64,000 nt of DNA from Prochlorococcus sp. AG-424-P23 (lineage in GTDB: Bacteria > Cyanobacteriota > Cyanobacteriia > PCC-6307 > Cyanobiaceae). Each line of letters opens with the position of its first letter. The stretch's first letter is position 1. The notes under the pieces are model-generated. The model made no database searches. It had not been told where the DNA came from and saw only the letters and a list, made by a program, of their open reading frames with translations. The stretch is taken from assembly GCA_003210135.1 (NCBI GenBank), contig QCNK01000005.1, forward strand, positions 9,683-73,682. The letters run 5' to 3'. The position numbers were made by a program, and so were the translations under genes. This document shows, in pieces, positions 3,645 through 37,407 of the stretch.

Positions 3645-5408
3645 ATGGATAGCGAAATAAAAGAAAAAGAAATTAGCGAGTATTCTAATAAAGAAATTGA
3701 GTTATTTTTGACATCAGAACATTGTATAGAAGCAGGAGTAGTTTTAATTGCTAATAATGAAAAAAAAGTAAAACTCGGTGCAATGAATCCTATATATCAA
3801 AAAGTTTTAGATATAAAAGATGAATTAATAAATAATTTTAAGGTTGATGTTGAAGTTAGTCAAATAACCACAGAAGAATGGGAGAAATGGAATACTTCTG
3901 AAGATTCTTTTAAAGATTCAAATCAAATTATTGAGACACCAAATTTAACAATACATACAGATAAAAAAGATCAGTCAATTGATAGTAAACCGCCAGAAAT
4001 TTCTAACTCTGATGAAGATAATTTTGCGGATCAAAATACATCAAATGGTTCAACAAAAAAGAATAAATCACTTCTAGAAGAAATGTTGAATAATGAATTT
4101 TCAGAAGAATTAAAAGATAAGCAAGATGACAAATTTGATTTCTTTGATTTTGAAGATGATACGGAGGATGAAGACGAACTAGACATAATTGAAGATTCTG
4201 ATCTAGAAAATAATGACGACCCAGTCATAAAAGCTGCAGGTTCAATATTATCAACTTGCTCAAGATTAAAGGCATCTGATATCCATGCTGAACCTTTAGA
4301 AGAAAGAATGAGAATTAGGTATAGGATTGACGGGGTTCTTAAAGAAGTTTATTCTTTGCCAAAGGCTAAAGCTAAAGCAATAACAAGTAGATTAAAAGTT
4401 ATGAGTAAACTTGATATTGCTGAAAAGAGATTACCCCAGGACGGGAGAATAAGATGTCGAATAAATGATATTATTTCTGATTTTAGAGTTAGTACTTTAC
4501 CTGGGAAATGGGGAGAAAAAATTGTCCTAAGAGCACTACAGTCTGACTCATCGATGCTTGATCTAAATAAATTAATATCATCCAAGAAAGAATTAGGAAT
4601 GGTTAGAGAAATGGGAAATTCACCTTATGGGATATTTATAGTTGTCGGGCCTACAGGTAGTGGGAAATCAACAACTCTATATTCTATTTTAAATGAGAGA
4701 AACACTCCAGATGTAAATATAAGTACTGTTGAAGATCCCGTAGAATATACCCTAGATGGTATTCATCAAGTTCAAGTTATAAGAGAAAAGGGCTTGGATT
4801 TTGCTCGAGCATTAAGATCATTAATGAGACAAGATCCAGATATAATTTTGGTAGGTGAAACTAGAGATAAAGAGACTGCTCAAACTGCTATGGAAGCAGC
4901 ATTGACTGGCCACATGGTTTTTACCACTCTTCATGCAAATGATACTGCAACTGCCATAACTAGATTAAACGAAATGGGCATTCCTCCTTACTTGGTAGGC
5001 TCCTCTGTTGTTGGGGTAATGGCGCAAAGATTAATTAGAAGAGTATGTCCAAAATGTTCTTCGACAAGAGCTGTCGATCCAGAAAAAGACAAATTAGCGC
5101 ATGATCGTAATATTAGAACATTAAAGCAGGCAAATAGCATAGATCTGGCGAACAATGAGAGTAATAATTTATGTCCTGTTTGTAATGGAACTGGTTACAA
5201 AGGCCGTTTAGGGTTATATGAGGTAATGAAAGTTAATGAAAATATTAGGGAACTTATTATGAAATCCAGTACTGCTGATGTGATTAGAGAATCTGCGACT
5301 GAAAATGGTGTGAAAAGTTTATTAGATTATGGGTTAGACTTGGTAAAAGATGGACTAACTACTATCGAAGAAGTTGAAAGAGTTTGTCTTCTTGACGAAT
5401 CAGTATAA
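3645..5408 (+). CDS. pilB: Type IV pilus assembly ATPase PilB (GspE/PulE family)
   Basis: ASDIHAEP, DIAEKRLPQDGR, Walker A GPTGSGKST, Walker B DPDIILVGETRD, CPKC...CPVC zinc motif. Confidence 0.92.
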   Translation: MDSEIKEKEISEYSNKEIELFLTSEHCIEAGVVLIANNEKKVKLGAMNPIYQKVLDIKDELINNFKVDVEVSQITTEEWEKWNTSEDSFKDSNQIIETPNLTIHTDKKDQSIDSKPPEISNSDEDNFADQNTSNGSTKKNKSLLEEMLNNEFSEELKDKQDDKFDFFDFEDDTEDEDELDIIEDSDLENNDDPVIKAAGSILSTCSRLKASDIHAEPLEERMRIRYRIDGVLKEVYSLPKAKAKAITSRLKVMSKLDIAEKRLPQDGRIRCRINDIISDFRVSTLPGKWGEKIVLRALQSDSSMLDLNKLISSKKELGMVREMGNSPYGIFIVVGPTGSGKSTTLYSILNERNTPDVNISTVEDPVEYTLDGIHQVQVIREKGLDFARALRSLMRQDPDIILVGETRDKETAQTAMEAALTGHMVFTTLHANDTATAITRLNEMGIPPYLVGSSVVGVMAQRLIRRVCPKCSSTRAVDPEKDKLAHDRNIRTLKQANSIDLANNESNNLCPVCNGTGYKGRLGLYEVMKVNENIRELIMKSSTADVIRESATENGVKSLLDYGLDLVKDGLTTIEEVERVCLLDESV

Positions 5409-32849: not shown

Positions 32850-34040
32850 ATGAGTTTAAAAAAAAATATAAAAGATATTAAGAAAAATTATTCCCTAGGA
32901 ATAATTGGAGGTGGTCAACTGGCATTGATGTTGGCCGAGGCAGCAAAAAAAAGAGATTTAGAAGTATGTGTGCAAACAAAATCTTGTGATGATCCTGCTG
33001 GTTCAAAAGCAGATCATGTCATAGAAGCTGATCCTTTAAAGATAAGAGGTAATAAATCATTAATTAATGAGTGTGAAAAAATAATTTTTGAAAATGAATG
33101 GATAAAAATTGATAAATTAAATTTAATTGGCAATAAAGATATTTTTGTTCCAAGCCTTAATGCTATTAAGCCATTAGTAGATAGGTTTTCTCAAAAAAAA
33201 TTAATAGATAGAATGAATATTCCCTGTCCAAAATGGATAAGTATTGAAAATTTTAAAAATCTCTCGGATGAGGAAATCAATAATTGGAATTTTCCTCTAA
33301 TGGCAAAATCAAATAAAGGTGGATATGACGGTAAGGGGAACAAAAAAATAAAGACAAAAGAAGATTTAGATTCTTTTTTAACAGAGAATAATTCTGATGA
33401 ATGGTTAATAGAAGAATGGATAGAGTATGAAAAAGAACTAGCTCTCGTTGGTTCGAGAGATAGGACCGGTAAGATAAGATTCTTTCCAATAGTTGAGACA
33501 TTCCAATCAAATCATGTTTGTGATTGGGTTCTTGCACCTGGAACAAATGAATATGATTTGAACTTATTTGCAATAAATATTTTCTCTTCAATAGTCAATG
33601 AACTTAATTACATTGGAGTTCTAGCTATTGAATTCTTCTATGGAGATAATGGTCTTTTAATTAATGAAATAGCTCCTAGAACTCATAATTCAGCTCATTT
33701 CTCTATTGAAGCTTGTACCTCAAGTCAGTTTGATCAATATGTTTGCATCTCTTCTGGGATAATGCCACCTGAAATTAAAATGAACTGTGAAGGGGCAATT
33801 ATGATAAATCTACTGGGATTAAGAAAGAATTTCCCAATCTCAATTGAAACCAGAATAAAAATGTTATCTGAAATTGAGGGTTCTAATATTCATTGTTATG
33901 GCAAATCTCGAGAAATTCTAGGAAGAAAAATGGCTCACATCACATTTTTATTAAATGGTAAAACGCATTCAGAGAGATATGACGAGGCACAAGTTTTGTT
34001 AACTATGGTAAGAGACATCTGGCCATCTCCAAATGGATAA
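32850..34040 (+). CDS. purK: N5-CAIR synthetase
   Basis: GGGQLA, GGYDGKG, NEIAPRTHNS, RKMAHI. Confidence 0.95.
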   Translation: MSLKKNIKDIKKNYSLGIIGGGQLALMLAEAAKKRDLEVCVQTKSCDDPAGSKADHVIEADPLKIRGNKSLINECEKIIFENEWIKIDKLNLIGNKDIFVPSLNAIKPLVDRFSQKKLIDRMNIPCPKWISIENFKNLSDEEINNWNFPLMAKSNKGGYDGKGNKKIKTKEDLDSFLTENNSDEWLIEEWIEYEKELALVGSRDRTGKIRFFPIVETFQSNHVCDWVLAPGTNEYDLNLFAINIFSSIVNELNYIGVLAIEFFYGDNGLLINEIAPRTHNSAHFSIEACTSSQFDQYVCISSGIMPPEIKMNCEGAIMINLLGLRKNFPISIETRIKMLSEIEGSNIHCYGKSREILGRKMAHITFLLNGKTHSERYDEAQVLLTMVRDIWPSPNG

Positions 34041-34674: not shown

Positions 34675-34974
34675 ATGACTTTAGGAGGAGCTAATGTTTG
34701 GACTAATTTTTCTTACGGTTATCGTAATGAGTCCCCAAGTGGTTGGTTGCTTAGCCCAGACCGCAACAGATTAATTTTATTTATAAGGAATAAAAAATCT
34801 CCAAGAAATAGTATGAGAATTTTTGTTCATACATATTATGCAAATGATCGTGGTGAGCCAATGGCAATTAAATCATCAACTCAAATGTATTTGGATAATG
34901 CTTGGGATAAATGGCATGACCTTCAATTAGAAGGTTGGACTTTTGAAGAACTTGAATTACCTGAATCTGTATGA
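34675..34974 (+). CDS. DUF1651 family protein, copy 1
   Basis: PSGWLL...YANDRGEP..IKS...W..L..EGW. Confidence 0.82.
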   Translation: MTLGGANVWTNFSYGYRNESPSGWLLSPDRNRLILFIRNKKSPRNSMRIFVHTYYANDRGEPMAIKSSTQMYLDNAWDKWHDLQLEGWTFEELELPESV

Positions 34975-35253: not shown

Positions 35254-35376
35254 TTTAAAAACTTTATTTAGTTTTTATTTTTTTCTTAATTCTTAGAAAA
35301 CCGTAAGTTGCAAAGCCAACCAAAAACATGTCCAAGTAAATATGCCAAGTAGGAAAAATCTGGTGTATTAATTCCA

Positions 35377-36126
35377 TTAACTTTTTATTGCTACTTGCCA
35401 ATAAGGATAATCTATATTTGATTTTTCTCTAATTAATTGTAATTTTCTAGAATTTATTTTTACTACTATTCCATCTGTTGGATATTTACTAAAAAGCTTC
35501 CCTTCTAGCCATTGTTTTCGAAATACTTCGACTTGGCTCGTAAAGTTGCATGAAATATCTTGAGGTATTGTGAAGCCTAGCTTAGAAAGACTCTTTTTGG
35601 ACTCATATTGGTTAAGTGTTGAATTAAGTATTTGAAATGCGCAGAAGCTAAGACTTTCAGAAAATCCCTCTTTAGCTCTTAGAAATCCAGAAGCGATTCT
35701 CTGGGAGGTATTTGGACTTTGGTTGGGTGCGTATAATTCACCTCTAACTTGAAGAACTCCTAGTAAAGGGAGATTATTGGGAATGTCTTGGACTTTAACA
35801 AGTTTACTAGTAACGTCTGTCCCTTTTCTTGAAATTGCTTTCTCCAAGGTTCCATCCCTATATTGCAAAGCAACAGCACAACCATCAATTTTCGGTTCAA
35901 TTAATAATCTGGTATTAGCTAATAATCCTTTCAAAAATTCATCTATTGAATCCTTTTCTAATGAGGGTAAAACTAGTTTATTTTTCTTTTTAAAGTAATC
36001 ACAATTAGGGTTTATTCTTAATAAATTCTTTTCAAGTTGATCGAACTGCTTATCAGAGATTAAAGCATTACCATTTCTATAATTATCGTCATACCATTCG
36101 ATTCGTTCTTCTAAATAAGTCTTCAT
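35377..36126 (-). CDS. NAD-dependent DNA ligase, adenylation domain only
   Basis: Domain Ia (WYDDNYRNG..LISDKQFDQLE), EPKIDG, VRGELY, PTDGIVVKI, WQVAIK then stop; no OB/Zn/HhH/BRCT. Confidence 0.88.
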   Translation of the reverse strand: MKTYLEERIEWYDDNYRNGNALISDKQFDQLEKNLLRINPNCDYFKKKNKLVLPSLEKDSIDEFLKGLLANTRLLIEPKIDGCAVALQYRDGTLEKAISRKGTDVTSKLVKVQDIPNNLPLLGVLQVRGELYAPNQSPNTSQRIASGFLRAKEGFSESLSFCAFQILNSTLNQYESKKSLSKLGFTIPQDISCNFTSQVEVFRKQWLEGKLFSKYPTDGIVVKINSRKLQLIREKSNIDYPYWQVAIKS

Positions 36127-36333
36127 TTAATTCGATGGGTTAAGCTTTTGGCTAGGTATCCAACTTGGTTTATCTATGATCCATTTTTCTCTATCTTCAT
36201 ATTTAACAGTCCATAAAAGAAATGAAGAAATTTGTTTTAAGGATACTCCCAAAATGTATCTTGTTTTTGGACTTATTGACATAAATCCAAATAATAATAT
36301 TAATAAAATTAGTTTGAATACAAACTTGATCAT
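36127..36333 (-). CDS. Small membrane protein (68 aa)
   Basis: N-terminal TM; stop codon abuts the ligase ATG. Confidence 0.65.
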   Translation of the reverse strand: MIKFVFKLILLILLFGFMSISPKTRYILGVSLKQISSFLLWTVKYEDREKWIIDKPSWIPSQKLNPSN

Positions 36334-36363
36334 TCAAAAATAAGCATAATTCTTGCTAACTTT

Positions 36364-36621
36364 TTATTTTATGCAATTTTTATAACCTTCAATCTTTGAA
36401 AGGTCATCAATGTTCAAGCCTGTCTCTTTTAATAAATTTTCTTCTATATTATCTTTTTTAAATTTAGTTAATGCACCCTTAGTAGAGTACTTAATGCATA
36501 GGTTTTTATATTTTGCTTCTTTGACAACAGGAAATAAATAAAAACCAAATAAGACGATAAAAGCTCCATAGGTTACAACTTTTCTATGGTTTTTCCACCA
36601 TTCGTAAAATTTATTGGACAC
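36364..36621 (-). CDS. Small membrane protein (85 aa)
   Basis: TM segment, two Cys. Confidence 0.62.
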   Translation of the reverse strand: MSNKFYEWWKNHRKVVTYGAFIVLFGFYLFPVVKEAKYKNLCIKYSTKGALTKFKKDNIEENLLKETGLNIDDLSKIEGYKNCIK

Positions 36622-36696: not shown

Positions 36697-36927
36697 TTAT
36701 TGATTATTGTTAATGGATCTTACCCATGAATAATATCTAGACTTTCTGATCCTTTGTTCTTTAGATACTAATCTATCTGCAGATTCTAGAGGTGATTCAC
36801 CTTTCTCTACTTTTGTTGTAATTGATATCCCAAAACCTTTTGCTTCAATTTTTGCAATCCCACCTTCTAAGAAAAATAGGAAAGACCAACCTTTGTTCCA
36901 TCCTAAGTAGAAGGGATTTCGATGCAT
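36697..36927 (-). CDS. Conserved-looking hypothetical protein (76 aa)
   Basis: ATG ORF, GWNKGWSFLFFLEGG. Confidence 0.65.
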   Translation of the reverse strand: MHRNPFYLGWNKGWSFLFFLEGGIAKIEAKGFGISITTKVEKGESPLESADRLVSKEQRIRKSRYYSWVRSINNNQ

Positions 36928-37116: not shown

Positions 37117-37407
37117 ATGACATCAGGAGTTGATAATGTTCGGACTAATCTTTCTCGCGGCTGTCTTATTGACCCCCCAAGTGGCTGGTTATTTAACAAA
37201 AAAAGTGGTTTATTAATTTTTTTTGAGAGTAATAAGAAATCTGTATCTAATAGTTTAAAAGTTTATACCCACCTTTTTTATGCAAATGAATTAGGTGAAC
37301 CAACCCAAATTAAAAATTCAAGACTTCAATCTATTGAGTGTGCTTGTGAAACATGGAATGAATTAATTTCAGGAGGTTGGCAAATTGTTACTAATAAATT
37401 CCAGTAA
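37117..37407 (+). CDS. DUF1651 family protein, copy 2
   Basis: Aligns without gaps to copy 1 (38/88 identical, hand count). Confidence 0.82.
   Translation: MTSGVDNVRTNLSRGCLIDPPSGWLFNKKSGLLIFFESNKKSVSNSLKVYTHLFYANELGEPTQIKNSRLQSIECACETWNELISGGWQIVTNKFQ

Follow-up and report, generated by a model that had tools for sequence, protein, structure and literature searches.

A stand-alone NAD+-dependent ligase adenylation domain, ND-Lig tr, conserved at a fixed locus in HLII Prochlorococcus

The window, a stretch of 64,000 nucleotides of Prochlorococcus sp. AG-424-P23 analysed here as a whole, contains a 249-aa ligase-like gene next to two small genes with hydrophobic segments. The cassette is flanked by two DUF1651 genes. 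The elements of the locus are the following:

32850..34040, forward strand: purK, the core gene anchoring the syntenic locus (ATP-grasp and PurK_C domains; 71/80 loci)
34675..34974, forward strand: DUF1651 gene on the purK side of the cassette (PF07864, E 1e-11; syntenic in 80/80 loci)
35377..36126, reverse strand: ligase-like gene ('ND-Lig tr'), 249-aa ORF with domain Ia and a nucleotidyltransferase (NTase) domain
35383..35400, reverse strand: motif V, WQVAIK, with Lys248 (K314 of E. coli LigA), followed by Ser and the stop codon (translation, alignment)
35458..35481, reverse strand: motif IV, PTDGIVVK, with Asp218 (D285) and Lys223 (K290) (translation, alignment)
35731..35748, reverse strand: motif III, VRGELY, with Glu130 (E173 of E. 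coli LigA) (translation, alignment)
35881..35898, reverse strand: motif I, EPKIDG, with the catalytic Lys79 (translation)
35983..36126, reverse strand: domain Ia, residues 1-48 (alignment to E. coli LigA, translation)
36127..36333, reverse strand: tm68, ORF for a 68-aa protein with one N-terminal hydrophobic segment (79/80 HLII loci)
36364..36621, reverse strand: tm85, GTG-initiated ORF for an 85-aa protein whose one TM segment spans residues 15-33 (79/80 loci, 78 of them intact and of equal length)
36697..36927, reverse strand: upstream 76-aa ORF (similar sequence in 79/80 loci, an intact ORF of equal length in 13 only)
37117..37407, forward strand: second DUF1651 gene on the opposite side of the cassette (PF07864, E 3e-13; 44% identical to the first)

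The ligase-like gene has already been published, as 'ND-Lig tr' in a study of truncated NAD-dependent ligases of high-light Prochlorococcus (Hjerde, Maguren, Rzoska-Smith, Kirby and Williamson, bioRxiv 2020; 10.1101/2020.05.11.089284) and as the tycheposon hallmark 'lig_IRVE-NAD' (10.1101/2020.12.28.424599). The sole significant Pfam match of its product was the LigA adenylation domain (PF01653, E 3.8e-19), with a score of 69.7 bits, above the gathering cut-off of 27. The alignments to the NCBIfam LigA and LigB models were confined to the first approximately 300 model positions. Against the LigA equivalog TIGR00575 / NF005932 the protein remained below the cut-off (75.1 bits versus 444.45) and covered positions 81-301 of 652. 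An AlphaFold model (pLDDT 90.7) was compared with known structures by Foldseek. LigA adenylation domains ranked on top (E 1e-16, prob 1.0), the best 38 PDB matches were all NAD-ligase structures, and the NTase core could be superimposed on 4glw with an rmsd of 3.2 Å over 230 columns. A preliminary description of this DNA had proposed an adenylation-domain-only protein with motifs I, III, IV and V and the catalytic lysine intact; translation, Pfam match and model agree with it. The protein also ends where that description placed its end, one residue past the motif V lysine, which in the alignment is the NTase/OB boundary of E. coli LigA, and no OB remnant was found 3' of the gene.

The alignment to E. 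coli LigA showed that K115, D117, G118, R136, E173, D285, K290 and K314 are all present, as K79, D81, G82, R100, E130, D218, K223 and K248. The equivalents of the NMN-binding residues are Y16 (Y22 in E. coli), R17 (H23), D25 (D32), F28 (Y35) and D29 (D36). Y16, D25 and D29 are thus kept, the exchange of Y35 for F is conservative, and all of the stand-alone family described below has R in place of H23. In LigA, R200 is essential, and R218, R277 and R308 are, like R200, DNA-contacting arginines. The equivalent of R208 was retained; R218, R277 and R308 were unconserved, and the same may be true of R200, whose column contains an invariant Gln. Since the next residue is Arg, a register shift of a single position may rescue R200.

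All 80 HLII orthologues were intact and 249 aa long, with an invariant truncation point. Neutral decay with variable truncation points, for which we looked, was thus not observed. Across these strains the dN/dS ratio of the gene was 0.18, compared with 0.125 for purK, which indicates purifying selection. While 128 of the 249 columns varied among the 80 orthologues, Y16, R17, D25, F28, D29, E77, K79, G82, R100, E130, R150, D218, G219, K223 and K248 were unchanged in every one of them, and D81 was replaced by N in one. In a 48-sequence alignment of the whole family K79, D81 and G82 were invariant, and the catalytic residues of step 1 of the ligase reaction were nearly invariant although mean column identity was 32%. 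At least one such gene was present in 150 of 151 genomes of the genus, a distribution that cannot be due to chance. Some genomes of the genus apparently lacked the purK-locus orthologue; in the two that were checked (G122 and G146) purK lay at a contig end, so this absence may reflect an assembly break. The ligase-like gene is therefore intact, is under purifying selection and shows no decay.

In agreement with the preliminary description, the gene is preceded by two small genes in a three-gene run. The TAA of tm68 directly abuts the ATG of the ligase-like gene, and tm85 is located 30 nt upstream of tm68. With its co-oriented and tightly spaced genes, the arrangement looks like translational coupling of tm68 to the ligase-like gene. 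Each protein has a single strongly hydrophobic 19-mer, at residues 2-20 of tm68 and 15-33 of tm85 (mean Kyte-Doolittle values 2.38 and 2.13). Both genes are under purifying selection (dN/dS 0.37 for tm68, 0.15 for tm85), but the proteins are less conserved among HLII strains than the enzyme (about 83-85% versus 95%). Family matches were sought for both and none was found. The TAAATG junction was also retained where the ligase-like orthologue is 77% identical, and the two partners were also found beside an orthologue of 84% identity. They were absent beside the 73-75% identical orthologues of genome G171 and of genome G135, which we take to be MED4 (73%), and likewise beside the 65-69% identical island or mobile copies, the second paralogue and the viral copies. 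Each of the two small genes thus accompanies the ligase-like gene in 79 of the 80 HLII loci, but this does not extend to the more distant orthologues: tm68 and tm85 are lineage-specific neighbours in HLII and close relatives and not obligate partners of the family. The membrane tethering suggested in the preliminary description is weakened by this pattern.

The 76-aa ORF further upstream is doubtful as a gene of the given length, and it had no family match. The two DUF1651 genes cross-match each other. The neighbours of the ligase-like gene in the window are purK, DUF1651, hli genes and small ORFs. The purK-adjacent locus was fixed and syntenic in all 80 HLII loci examined. No tRNA gene was found in the 64 kb window and no integrase or primase near the gene. 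The copy in the window behaves as a fixed chromosomal gene and is not within a mobile element. A PADLOC search returned a single marginal match (PDC-M29A, E 0.0014) and none for the TM proteins, and a role in a defence system was rejected on this basis.

The preliminary description gave high-light Prochlorococcus as lacking full-length LigA, and this proved correct. No match above the TIGR00575 cut-off was found in the genome itself; the cut-off was reached in 0 of 6 genomes of the genus, against 110 of the 121 genomes sampled across the whole family, and the same absence has been reported before (10.1101/2020.05.11.089284). The LigA OB domain PF03120 was missing from the genome at E<=1 and from all 61 genus genomes searched. 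A search of the genome with TIGR00575 gave the two stand-alone genes, the HhH of UvrC and no further match, and no LigA-type OB, Zn, HhH or BRCT half is encoded. The preliminary description had also considered that the protein might be one half of a LigA-type ligase complemented in trans and had proposed a search for a separate OB-HhH-BRCT gene. That search found none, and a separate C-terminal half of LigA was rejected. The genome carries two ATP-dependent ligases, identified by PF01068 matches on contigs C5 and C36. One is a 442-aa protein matching the crystallised Pmar-Lig (PDB 6rau) at E 1e-285; the other has 546 aa and the domains A_N, A_M and A_C. LLI-type genomes possess full-length LigA and stand-alone copies together. 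According to the preprint, the former LigA site is occupied by AD-Lig P (10.1101/2020.05.11.089284).

Homologues of the ligase-like protein formed 45 clusters (50% identity) at E<1e-30, and the complete members listed were nearly all of 220-285 aa. Over the family, lengths ranged from 210 to 293 aa, and aligned members stop 0-10 residues past the motif V lysine. All 48 homologues on viral contigs were stand-alone. In a phylogenetic tree the 82 stand-alone rows formed a single clade (SH-aLRT 96), and full-length cyanobacterial LigA formed a separate one (support 99). The Prochlorococcus copies were nested within the stand-alone clade (95), among sequences from uncultured viral contigs. Family signatures missing from LigA are the deletion of the RGDG loop after R136, the exchange of H23 for R and the invariant Q in the R200 column. 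On viral contigs the gene lies in a VRR-NUC / VapE primase-helicase module, and a 66%-identical copy has an AAA_25 gene as a neighbour and follows directly on a large serine recombinase. No cultured cyanophage or other isolate had a close relative; all such matches were below 60% identity, most of them to full-length or split NAD ligases. Judged from these sequences, the family is large, old and diverse; its stand-alone proteins, of ~240-285 aa, are encoded in tycheposons and in replication modules of uncultured marine viral contigs, and it does not derive from a host LigA that broke down. The truncated host enzyme implied in the preliminary description is accordingly not supported.

In 46 of the 48 viral-contig loci the stand-alone gene is directly preceded, on its own strand, by a gene for a protein of approximately 250 aa. 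This protein matched the PHROG 'minor tail protein' (E 4e-13); it had no Pfam family, and a profile search of PDB sequences was empty. Its structural model (pLDDT 81) contained no OB or HhH fold and had no fold match in the PDB. BFVD gave uncharacterised viral proteins and a weak HK97-gp10 or neck-like match only. The protein is absent from the AG-424-P23 genome at E<=10. It was rejected as a substitute for the OB and HhH modules since the model contains no such fold and the genome lacks the gene.

The genome holds a second paralogue, located at the SDR locus, in which the Asp of motif IV and the Lys of motif V are both gone. In HLII it carries D285N and K314Q/E, but it is still kept (dN/dS 0.32). 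This shows that the fold can be retained without the full catalytic equipment.

The explanation that we favour, and hold to be rather more probable than improbable, is that the gene encodes a selected and complete stand-alone Ia and NTase protein (ND-Lig tr), which has been domesticated and is predicted to be an NAD+-dependent self-adenylylating enzyme. Domain Ia would bind NAD+, the AMP would move to Lys79 and NMN would be released, as in step 1 of the ligase reaction. The residues needed for this step are kept and invariant in the orthologues, apart from D81N in one of them and R at H23. Purifying selection combined with the retention of these residues makes a retained adenylyltransferase-type activity plausible. 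To this extent the repurposed NAD+-dependent adenylyltransferase of the preliminary description gains support, although not its derivation from a truncated host LigA. Because the OB, Zn, HhH and BRCT parts are missing and R218, R277, R308 and possibly R200 are unconserved, the protein alone probably cannot clamp and seal a nick. More speculatively, the AMP might then be handed to the 5'-phosphate end of a nucleic acid, since the lysines of motifs IV and V and the equivalent of R208 are kept. This would require a partner that is not of the LigA type, or another acceptor might be used. Isolated Ia-NTase fragments of LigA self-adenylylate but do not seal nicks, so any downstream reaction is conjecture. 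Routine nick sealing would be left to the two ATP-dependent ligases. A drain on NAD appears disfavoured on principle, since a ligase-type reaction would be single-turnover unless the AMP is passed on. As a tentative extension, which may well not hold, the stand-alone Ia-NTase proteins could be a working family of NAD+-dependent adenylyltransferases in their own right, acting when marine mobile elements replicate or integrate, for instance by 5'-adenylylating or sealing DNA ends in concert with a partner not of the LigA type. One such protein would then have become a domesticated, near-core gene of the most abundant phototroph once LigA was lost, and the HLII copy would work with the two small membrane proteins.

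Selection on the gene might be explained without catalysis if NAD+, or a nicked or 5'-phosphate end, were bound without onward transfer of AMP and the protein had a part in sensing, regulation or competition, for instance reporting NAD+ status or shielding DNA ends. Such a use would suit a protein without the OB and HhH modules of LigA steps 2 and 3, with R218, R277 and R308 unconserved and Q in the R200 column; the survival of the HLII second paralogue with D285N and K314Q/E points the same way, and activity has been deemed unlikely in the preprint (10.1101/2020.05.11.089284). We nevertheless consider it unlikely, given that the step-1 residues including Lys79 are invariant in 80 orthologues (D81N in one) in which half of the columns vary, and that pure binding needs neither the nucleophile nor the residues of motifs III, IV and V. 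The protein could also be one subunit of a two-part NAD+-dependent DNA ligase whose DNA clamping is supplied by a separate protein, as in T5/PR1-type phages. Split NAD ligases are known (T5 dnlj1 with dnlj2; PDB 9hu3/9i5i, 'PR1 phage heterodimeric DNA ligase'), and candidates for a second subunit exist in the upstream protein of 46 viral loci and in tm68 abutting the window's copy. But subunit A of T5 has the OB fold that is lacking here, neither the genome nor 61 genus genomes contain a LigA-type OB, Zn, HhH or BRCT part, the viral neighbour has neither an OB/HhH fold nor a match to a solved structure and is absent from this genome, and tm68 and tm85 are tiny TM proteins missing beside the MED4-type orthologue. 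Taken together, this makes a two-part ligase decidedly improbable.

A membrane-anchored complex, with the enzyme tethered by tm68, tm85 or both and acting there on envelope-associated or incoming nucleic acid or on another acceptor, is in our opinion more doubtful still. It draws on the TAA|ATG junction kept in HLII and at the 77%-identical locus, on the partners beside the 84%-identical orthologue and on the purifying selection on two genes with one TM segment each. However, the pairing is not a trait of the family, being absent from the 73-75% orthologues, the 65-69% copies, the second paralogue and the viral copies; tm68 and tm85 have diverged further than the enzyme, and adjacency by itself does not prove interaction. 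Finally, since high-light strains no longer possess full-length LigA and the domain content resembles that of an N-terminal piece, one might think of a decaying pseudogene of the former replicative enzyme. There is hardly any room for this idea: every one of the 80 orthologues is intact with a constant truncation point and a dN/dS of 0.18, the proteins form a distinct clade with its own indel signature, and LLI-type genomes hold both LigA and stand-alone copies. Moreover, the locus differs from that of LigA, whose former site has been assigned to AD-Lig P (10.1101/2020.05.11.089284).

High-light Prochlorococcus is the reported exception to the rule that bacteria possess an NAD-dependent replicative ligase, and nearly every genome of the group retains one or two selected copies of the NAD-loading half. 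Should that half be catalytically active, it would represent a minimal NAD+-dependent nucleotidyltransferase that works on something other than a clamped nick, and it would link core cell biology in an organism of global ecological importance with the replication functions of mobile elements.

Like LigB of E. coli, the protein is an NAD-ligase paralogue of reduced architecture, and the NCBIfam LigB model aligns with residues 5-246 (E 3e-19). LigB, however, keeps the OB, Zn and HhH parts, and the score of 68.8 bits is far from the cut-off of 498. The heterodimeric ligases of T5/PR1-type phages (T5 dnlj1/dnlj2; PDB 9hu3, 9i5i), which share 27-31% identity with it over the Ia-NTase region, are a naturally occurring case of an NAD ligase whose parts are encoded by separate genes. 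Their A subunit (323-339 aa) retains the OB fold and is adjoined by its cognate B subunit, whereas neither OB nor B subunit is present here; in T5, the 323-aa dnlj1 carries the LigA OB-fold InterPro entry in the note of its record, and dnlj2 adjoins. The adenylation domains of LigA itself (PDB 1b04, 1ta8/1tae, 3jsl, 3uq8, 1zau) share its fold and its motifs, with a Foldseek E of about 1e-16 and phmmer E values as low as 3e-10, but these structures are laboratory fragments of enzymes of ~670 aa. The ligase-like protein is a natural stand-alone form, about 70 residues shorter. It differs in a shortened Ia-NTase segment, a shortened insert after motif III, the deleted RGDG loop, R at H23 and Q in the R200 column.

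The tycheposon profile 'lig_IRVE-NAD / Replication / Ligase / DNA_ligase_aden', a hallmark of the replication module (Hackl et al., 10.1101/2020.12.28.424599), has an identical Pfam-only architecture, while integrase, primase and tRNA are all missing around the copy in the window. Closest of all is ND-Lig tr as described in the preprint: less than 260 aa, with only Ia and NT, present in all high-light strains without full-length LigA and in a clade apart from full-length ligases. Its authors placed the genes in genomic islands with 'no synteny', were unable to produce the protein in soluble form and considered activity 'highly unlikely' (10.1101/2020.05.11.089284). In contrast, the orthologue analysed here occupies one fixed purK-adjacent locus in 80/80 HLII loci examined, is under purifying selection and retains the step-1 residues. 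What is added here, for a gene that is itself already known, is evidence that it is under selection, that its locus is syntenic and fixed and that its catalytic residues do not vary, together with a paralogue that, by contrast, has drifted catalytically.

The ligase-like gene encodes a protein of 249 amino acids whose sole significant Pfam family was the NAD-dependent ligase adenylation domain, PF01653 (E 3.8e-19). The NCBIfam models of LigA and LigB were matched only over their first ~300 positions, with scores far under the cut-offs. The gene and the elements recognised in its translation are as follows:

35377-36126, minus strand: ligase-like gene, open reading frame of 249 aa
35881-35898, minus strand: EPKIDG in translation
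35731-35748, minus strand: VRGELY in translation
35458-35481, minus strand: PTDGIVVK in translation
35383-35400, minus strand: WQVAIK in translation, then Ser and the stop codon

Translation and alignment to E. coli LigA (whose residue numbers are used throughout) confirmed that domain Ia and motifs I, III, IV and V are intact, and that the gene ends one residue past the motif V lysine, as the preliminary description had stated. This final lysine corresponds to K314, so the protein stops exactly at the point where LigA continues into the OB fold. An AlphaFold model for which 48 family members were used had a mean pLDDT of 90.7, and its best Foldseek matches were solved LigA adenylation domains (E about 1e-16). 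A 45-aa open reading frame with a TTG start (35264-35401, minus strand) extends across the gene's 3' end in a different frame, matched no family and is probably spurious.

The best named relatives were Prochlorococcus HLII strains, for example MIT 9312 (90% identity). The orthologue was intact, with identical start and stop and 249 codons, at all 80 loci taken from different HLII species-level genomes. The dN/dS ratio across strains, which had been suggested as a check, was 0.18 for the ligase-like gene (pooled Nei-Gojobori) and, at the same loci, 0.125 for purK, 0.15 for the 85-aa gene tm85 and 0.37 for the 68-aa gene tm68, all values being pooled pairwise estimates. Among the 80 proteins 128 of 249 columns varied; the positions equivalent to Y22, D32, Y35, D36, E113, K115, G118, R136, E173, R208, D285, G286, K290 and K314 were invariant, and the D117 equivalent was altered in just one. 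Of 151 genomes of the genus, 150 had at least one member of the stand-alone family, as did 89/89 of the high-quality ones. These patterns argue against decay with variable truncation and for maintenance of the gene by selection.

The genes surrounding it include:

34675-34974, plus strand: DUF1651 gene on the purK side
36127-36333, minus strand: tm68, upstream of the ligase-like gene
36364-36621, minus strand: tm85, upstream of the ligase-like gene
36697-36927, minus strand: o76, a 76-aa open reading frame upstream of tm85
37117-37407, plus strand: DUF1651 gene on the other side

The gene order was hli, two small open reading frames, o77, DUF1651, o76, tm85, tm68, the ligase-like gene, o62, o46, DUF1651 and purK (names in o denote small open reading frames). 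It was unchanged from hli to purK in essentially all 80 HLII loci and in five further genomes; the locus is thus fixed in HLII. Neither a tRNA nor an integrase gene was found within the window. The two DUF1651 paralogues, 44% identical and co-oriented, bracket the minus-strand block from o76 to the ligase-like gene together with the plus-strand o46 and o62, which looks like a duplication with a cassette between the copies. Two genomes (G122 and G146) seemingly lacked the cassette; purK stood at a contig end in both, and the DUF1651 repeat may have broken these assemblies. The coding status or start of o76 is doubtful: similar sequence was present in 79 of the 80 loci, but just 13 had an intact frame of equal length.

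The TAA of tm68 directly precedes the ATG of the ligase-like gene, so that here too, and hence in every part, the earlier observation was correct. tm68 and tm85 each contain one strongly hydrophobic segment of 19 residues, match no family and have no homologue elsewhere in the window's genome. The three-gene run was also kept beside an 84%-identical orthologue and, including the TAA/ATG junction, in a lineage with a 77%-identical orthologue and an 83%-identical purK. It was missing beside a 73% orthologue in genome G135 (which we take to be MED4), where a pseudouridine synthase gene precedes, and likewise beside a 75% orthologue, the 65-69% copies, a second copy in the same genome (paralogue 2) and all copies at 48 viral loci. 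In other words, this is a real coupling that HLII and its near relatives have conserved, but it is a lineage-specific neighbourhood and not a family trait. Tethering of the ligase-like protein to the membrane by the small proteins would therefore be only a minor possibility.

It might be supposed that the gene is a truncated host LigA, or one half of a ligase completed in trans. Full-length LigA scored over the cut-off in 110 of 121 family genomes sampled and in 0 of 6 from the window's genus, in keeping with the earlier statement that high-light Prochlorococcus lack it. Across the entire genome to which the window belongs, the complete LigA model found only the ligase-like gene, paralogue 2 and a weak HhH match, which proved to be the C-terminus of UvrC and not a LigA C-terminal half. 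The OB-fold model had no match anywhere in this genome or in 61 genomes of the genus. With the DNA-encircling modules missing from both protein and genome, completion by a LigA-type half is rejected. Two ATP-dependent enzymes are presumed to be the working ligases of this genome, the second being virtually identical to crystallised Pmar-Lig:

G000 C5:75093-76733, about 1.4-3 kb past the window's end: ATP-dependent DNA ligase, 546 aa, A_N, A_M and A_C domains
G000 C36:4404-5732: ATP-dependent DNA ligase, 442 aa, matching PDB 6rau (Pmar-Lig) at E 1e-285

An exhaustive profile-free search gave 45 clusters (50% identity) at E < 1e-30; among those listed, nearly all complete members had 220-285 aa, and the homologues on IMG/VR viral contigs were stand-alone in 48/48 cases. 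In a quick maximum-likelihood search with SH-aLRT as the only support measure, 82 stand-alone sequences formed one clade (96), full-length cyanobacterial LigA formed a separate one (99), and chromosomal Prochlorococcus copies were nested among viral and metagenomic stand-alone sequences (95). Compared with LigA, the family lacks the RGDG loop after R136, has a shorter Ia-NTase linker and post-motif III insert, replaces H23 by Arg and carries an invariant Gln at the R200 column, followed by Arg. The separate clade, the viral homologues and these features argue that the gene is not a remnant of host LigA.

The viral copies share a module with genes for a VRR-NUC nuclease and a VapE-type primase-helicase, and in some loci also for a Mom-like protein. 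Immediately upstream on the same strand, 8-125 nt away or overlapping by a few nt, 46 of the 48 viral loci encode a ~250-aa protein (L141-L186, e.g. L162:5119-5889). It matched PHROG 'minor tail protein' (E 4e-13) and no Pfam family; its model (pLDDT 81) matched uncharacterised viral proteins only. As a missing ligase half it was rejected, since the model had no match among solved structures and the window's genome has no counterpart.

An NAD+-dependent adenylyltransferase, as earlier proposed, is partly supported: the fold, the nucleophilic lysine and the LigA-type residues for NMN binding (domain Ia) and lysine adenylylation are present and constrained, but the LigA-type trans half was not borne out. 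Isolated LigA Ia-NTase fragments reportedly adenylylate themselves and do not join nicks. Individual LigA residues have reportedly been assigned their roles by mutational work in the Shuman laboratory. The 249-aa protein would still react with NAD+ to give an AMP adduct on Lys79 of its own numbering (the K115 equivalent), and the AMP might, more speculatively, be passed on to a 5'-phosphate acceptor. Such an acceptor would fit the retention of the K290, K314 and R208 equivalents. R218, R277 and R308 have been lost, which speaks against nick sealing by the protein alone.

Paralogue 2 shows a different course:

G000 C12:42141-42890 (L002:1306-2055), plus strand, outside the window: paralogue 2, 249 aa

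It was 50% identical to the window's protein in a gap-free alignment, and its locus was conserved (o61, the gene, a 309-aa short-chain dehydrogenase, o88). HLII copies carried D36K, S81K, R136K, R208N, D285N and K314Q/E, with a dN/dS of 0.32. A 69%-identical orthologue from another clade (G144) retained both the Asp of motif IV and the Lys of motif V. Paralogue 2 thus exemplifies catalytic drift in the family, from which the window's copy has been spared.

The object had been described before. According to Hjerde et al. (bioRxiv 10.1101/2020.05.11.089284), full-length LigA is absent from all high-light strains, its place being taken by an ATP-dependent ligase. Their 'ND-Lig tr' genes (<260 aa, Ia and NT domains only) match the situation of the window's gene exactly, and they too noted a separate clade for the truncated forms. 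They did not obtain soluble protein and judged activity highly unlikely. They also assigned the genes to islands and denied synteny, which the collinear purK locus contradicts for the window's orthologue; both HLII paralogue loci were collinear across all genomes examined (L118-L122, L006-L085). Hackl et al. (bioRxiv 10.1101/2020.12.28.424599) listed 'lig_IRVE-NAD', with the DNA_ligase_aden-only profile, as a replication hallmark gene of tycheposons. A 66%-identical copy of 251 aa on a marine metagenome contig (L137:3148-5756) starts at 5001 and so overlaps the stop of the gene for a large serine recombinase of 618 aa, which ends at 5004; it is adjoined by an AAA_25 gene and small genes, a tycheposon-like arrangement.
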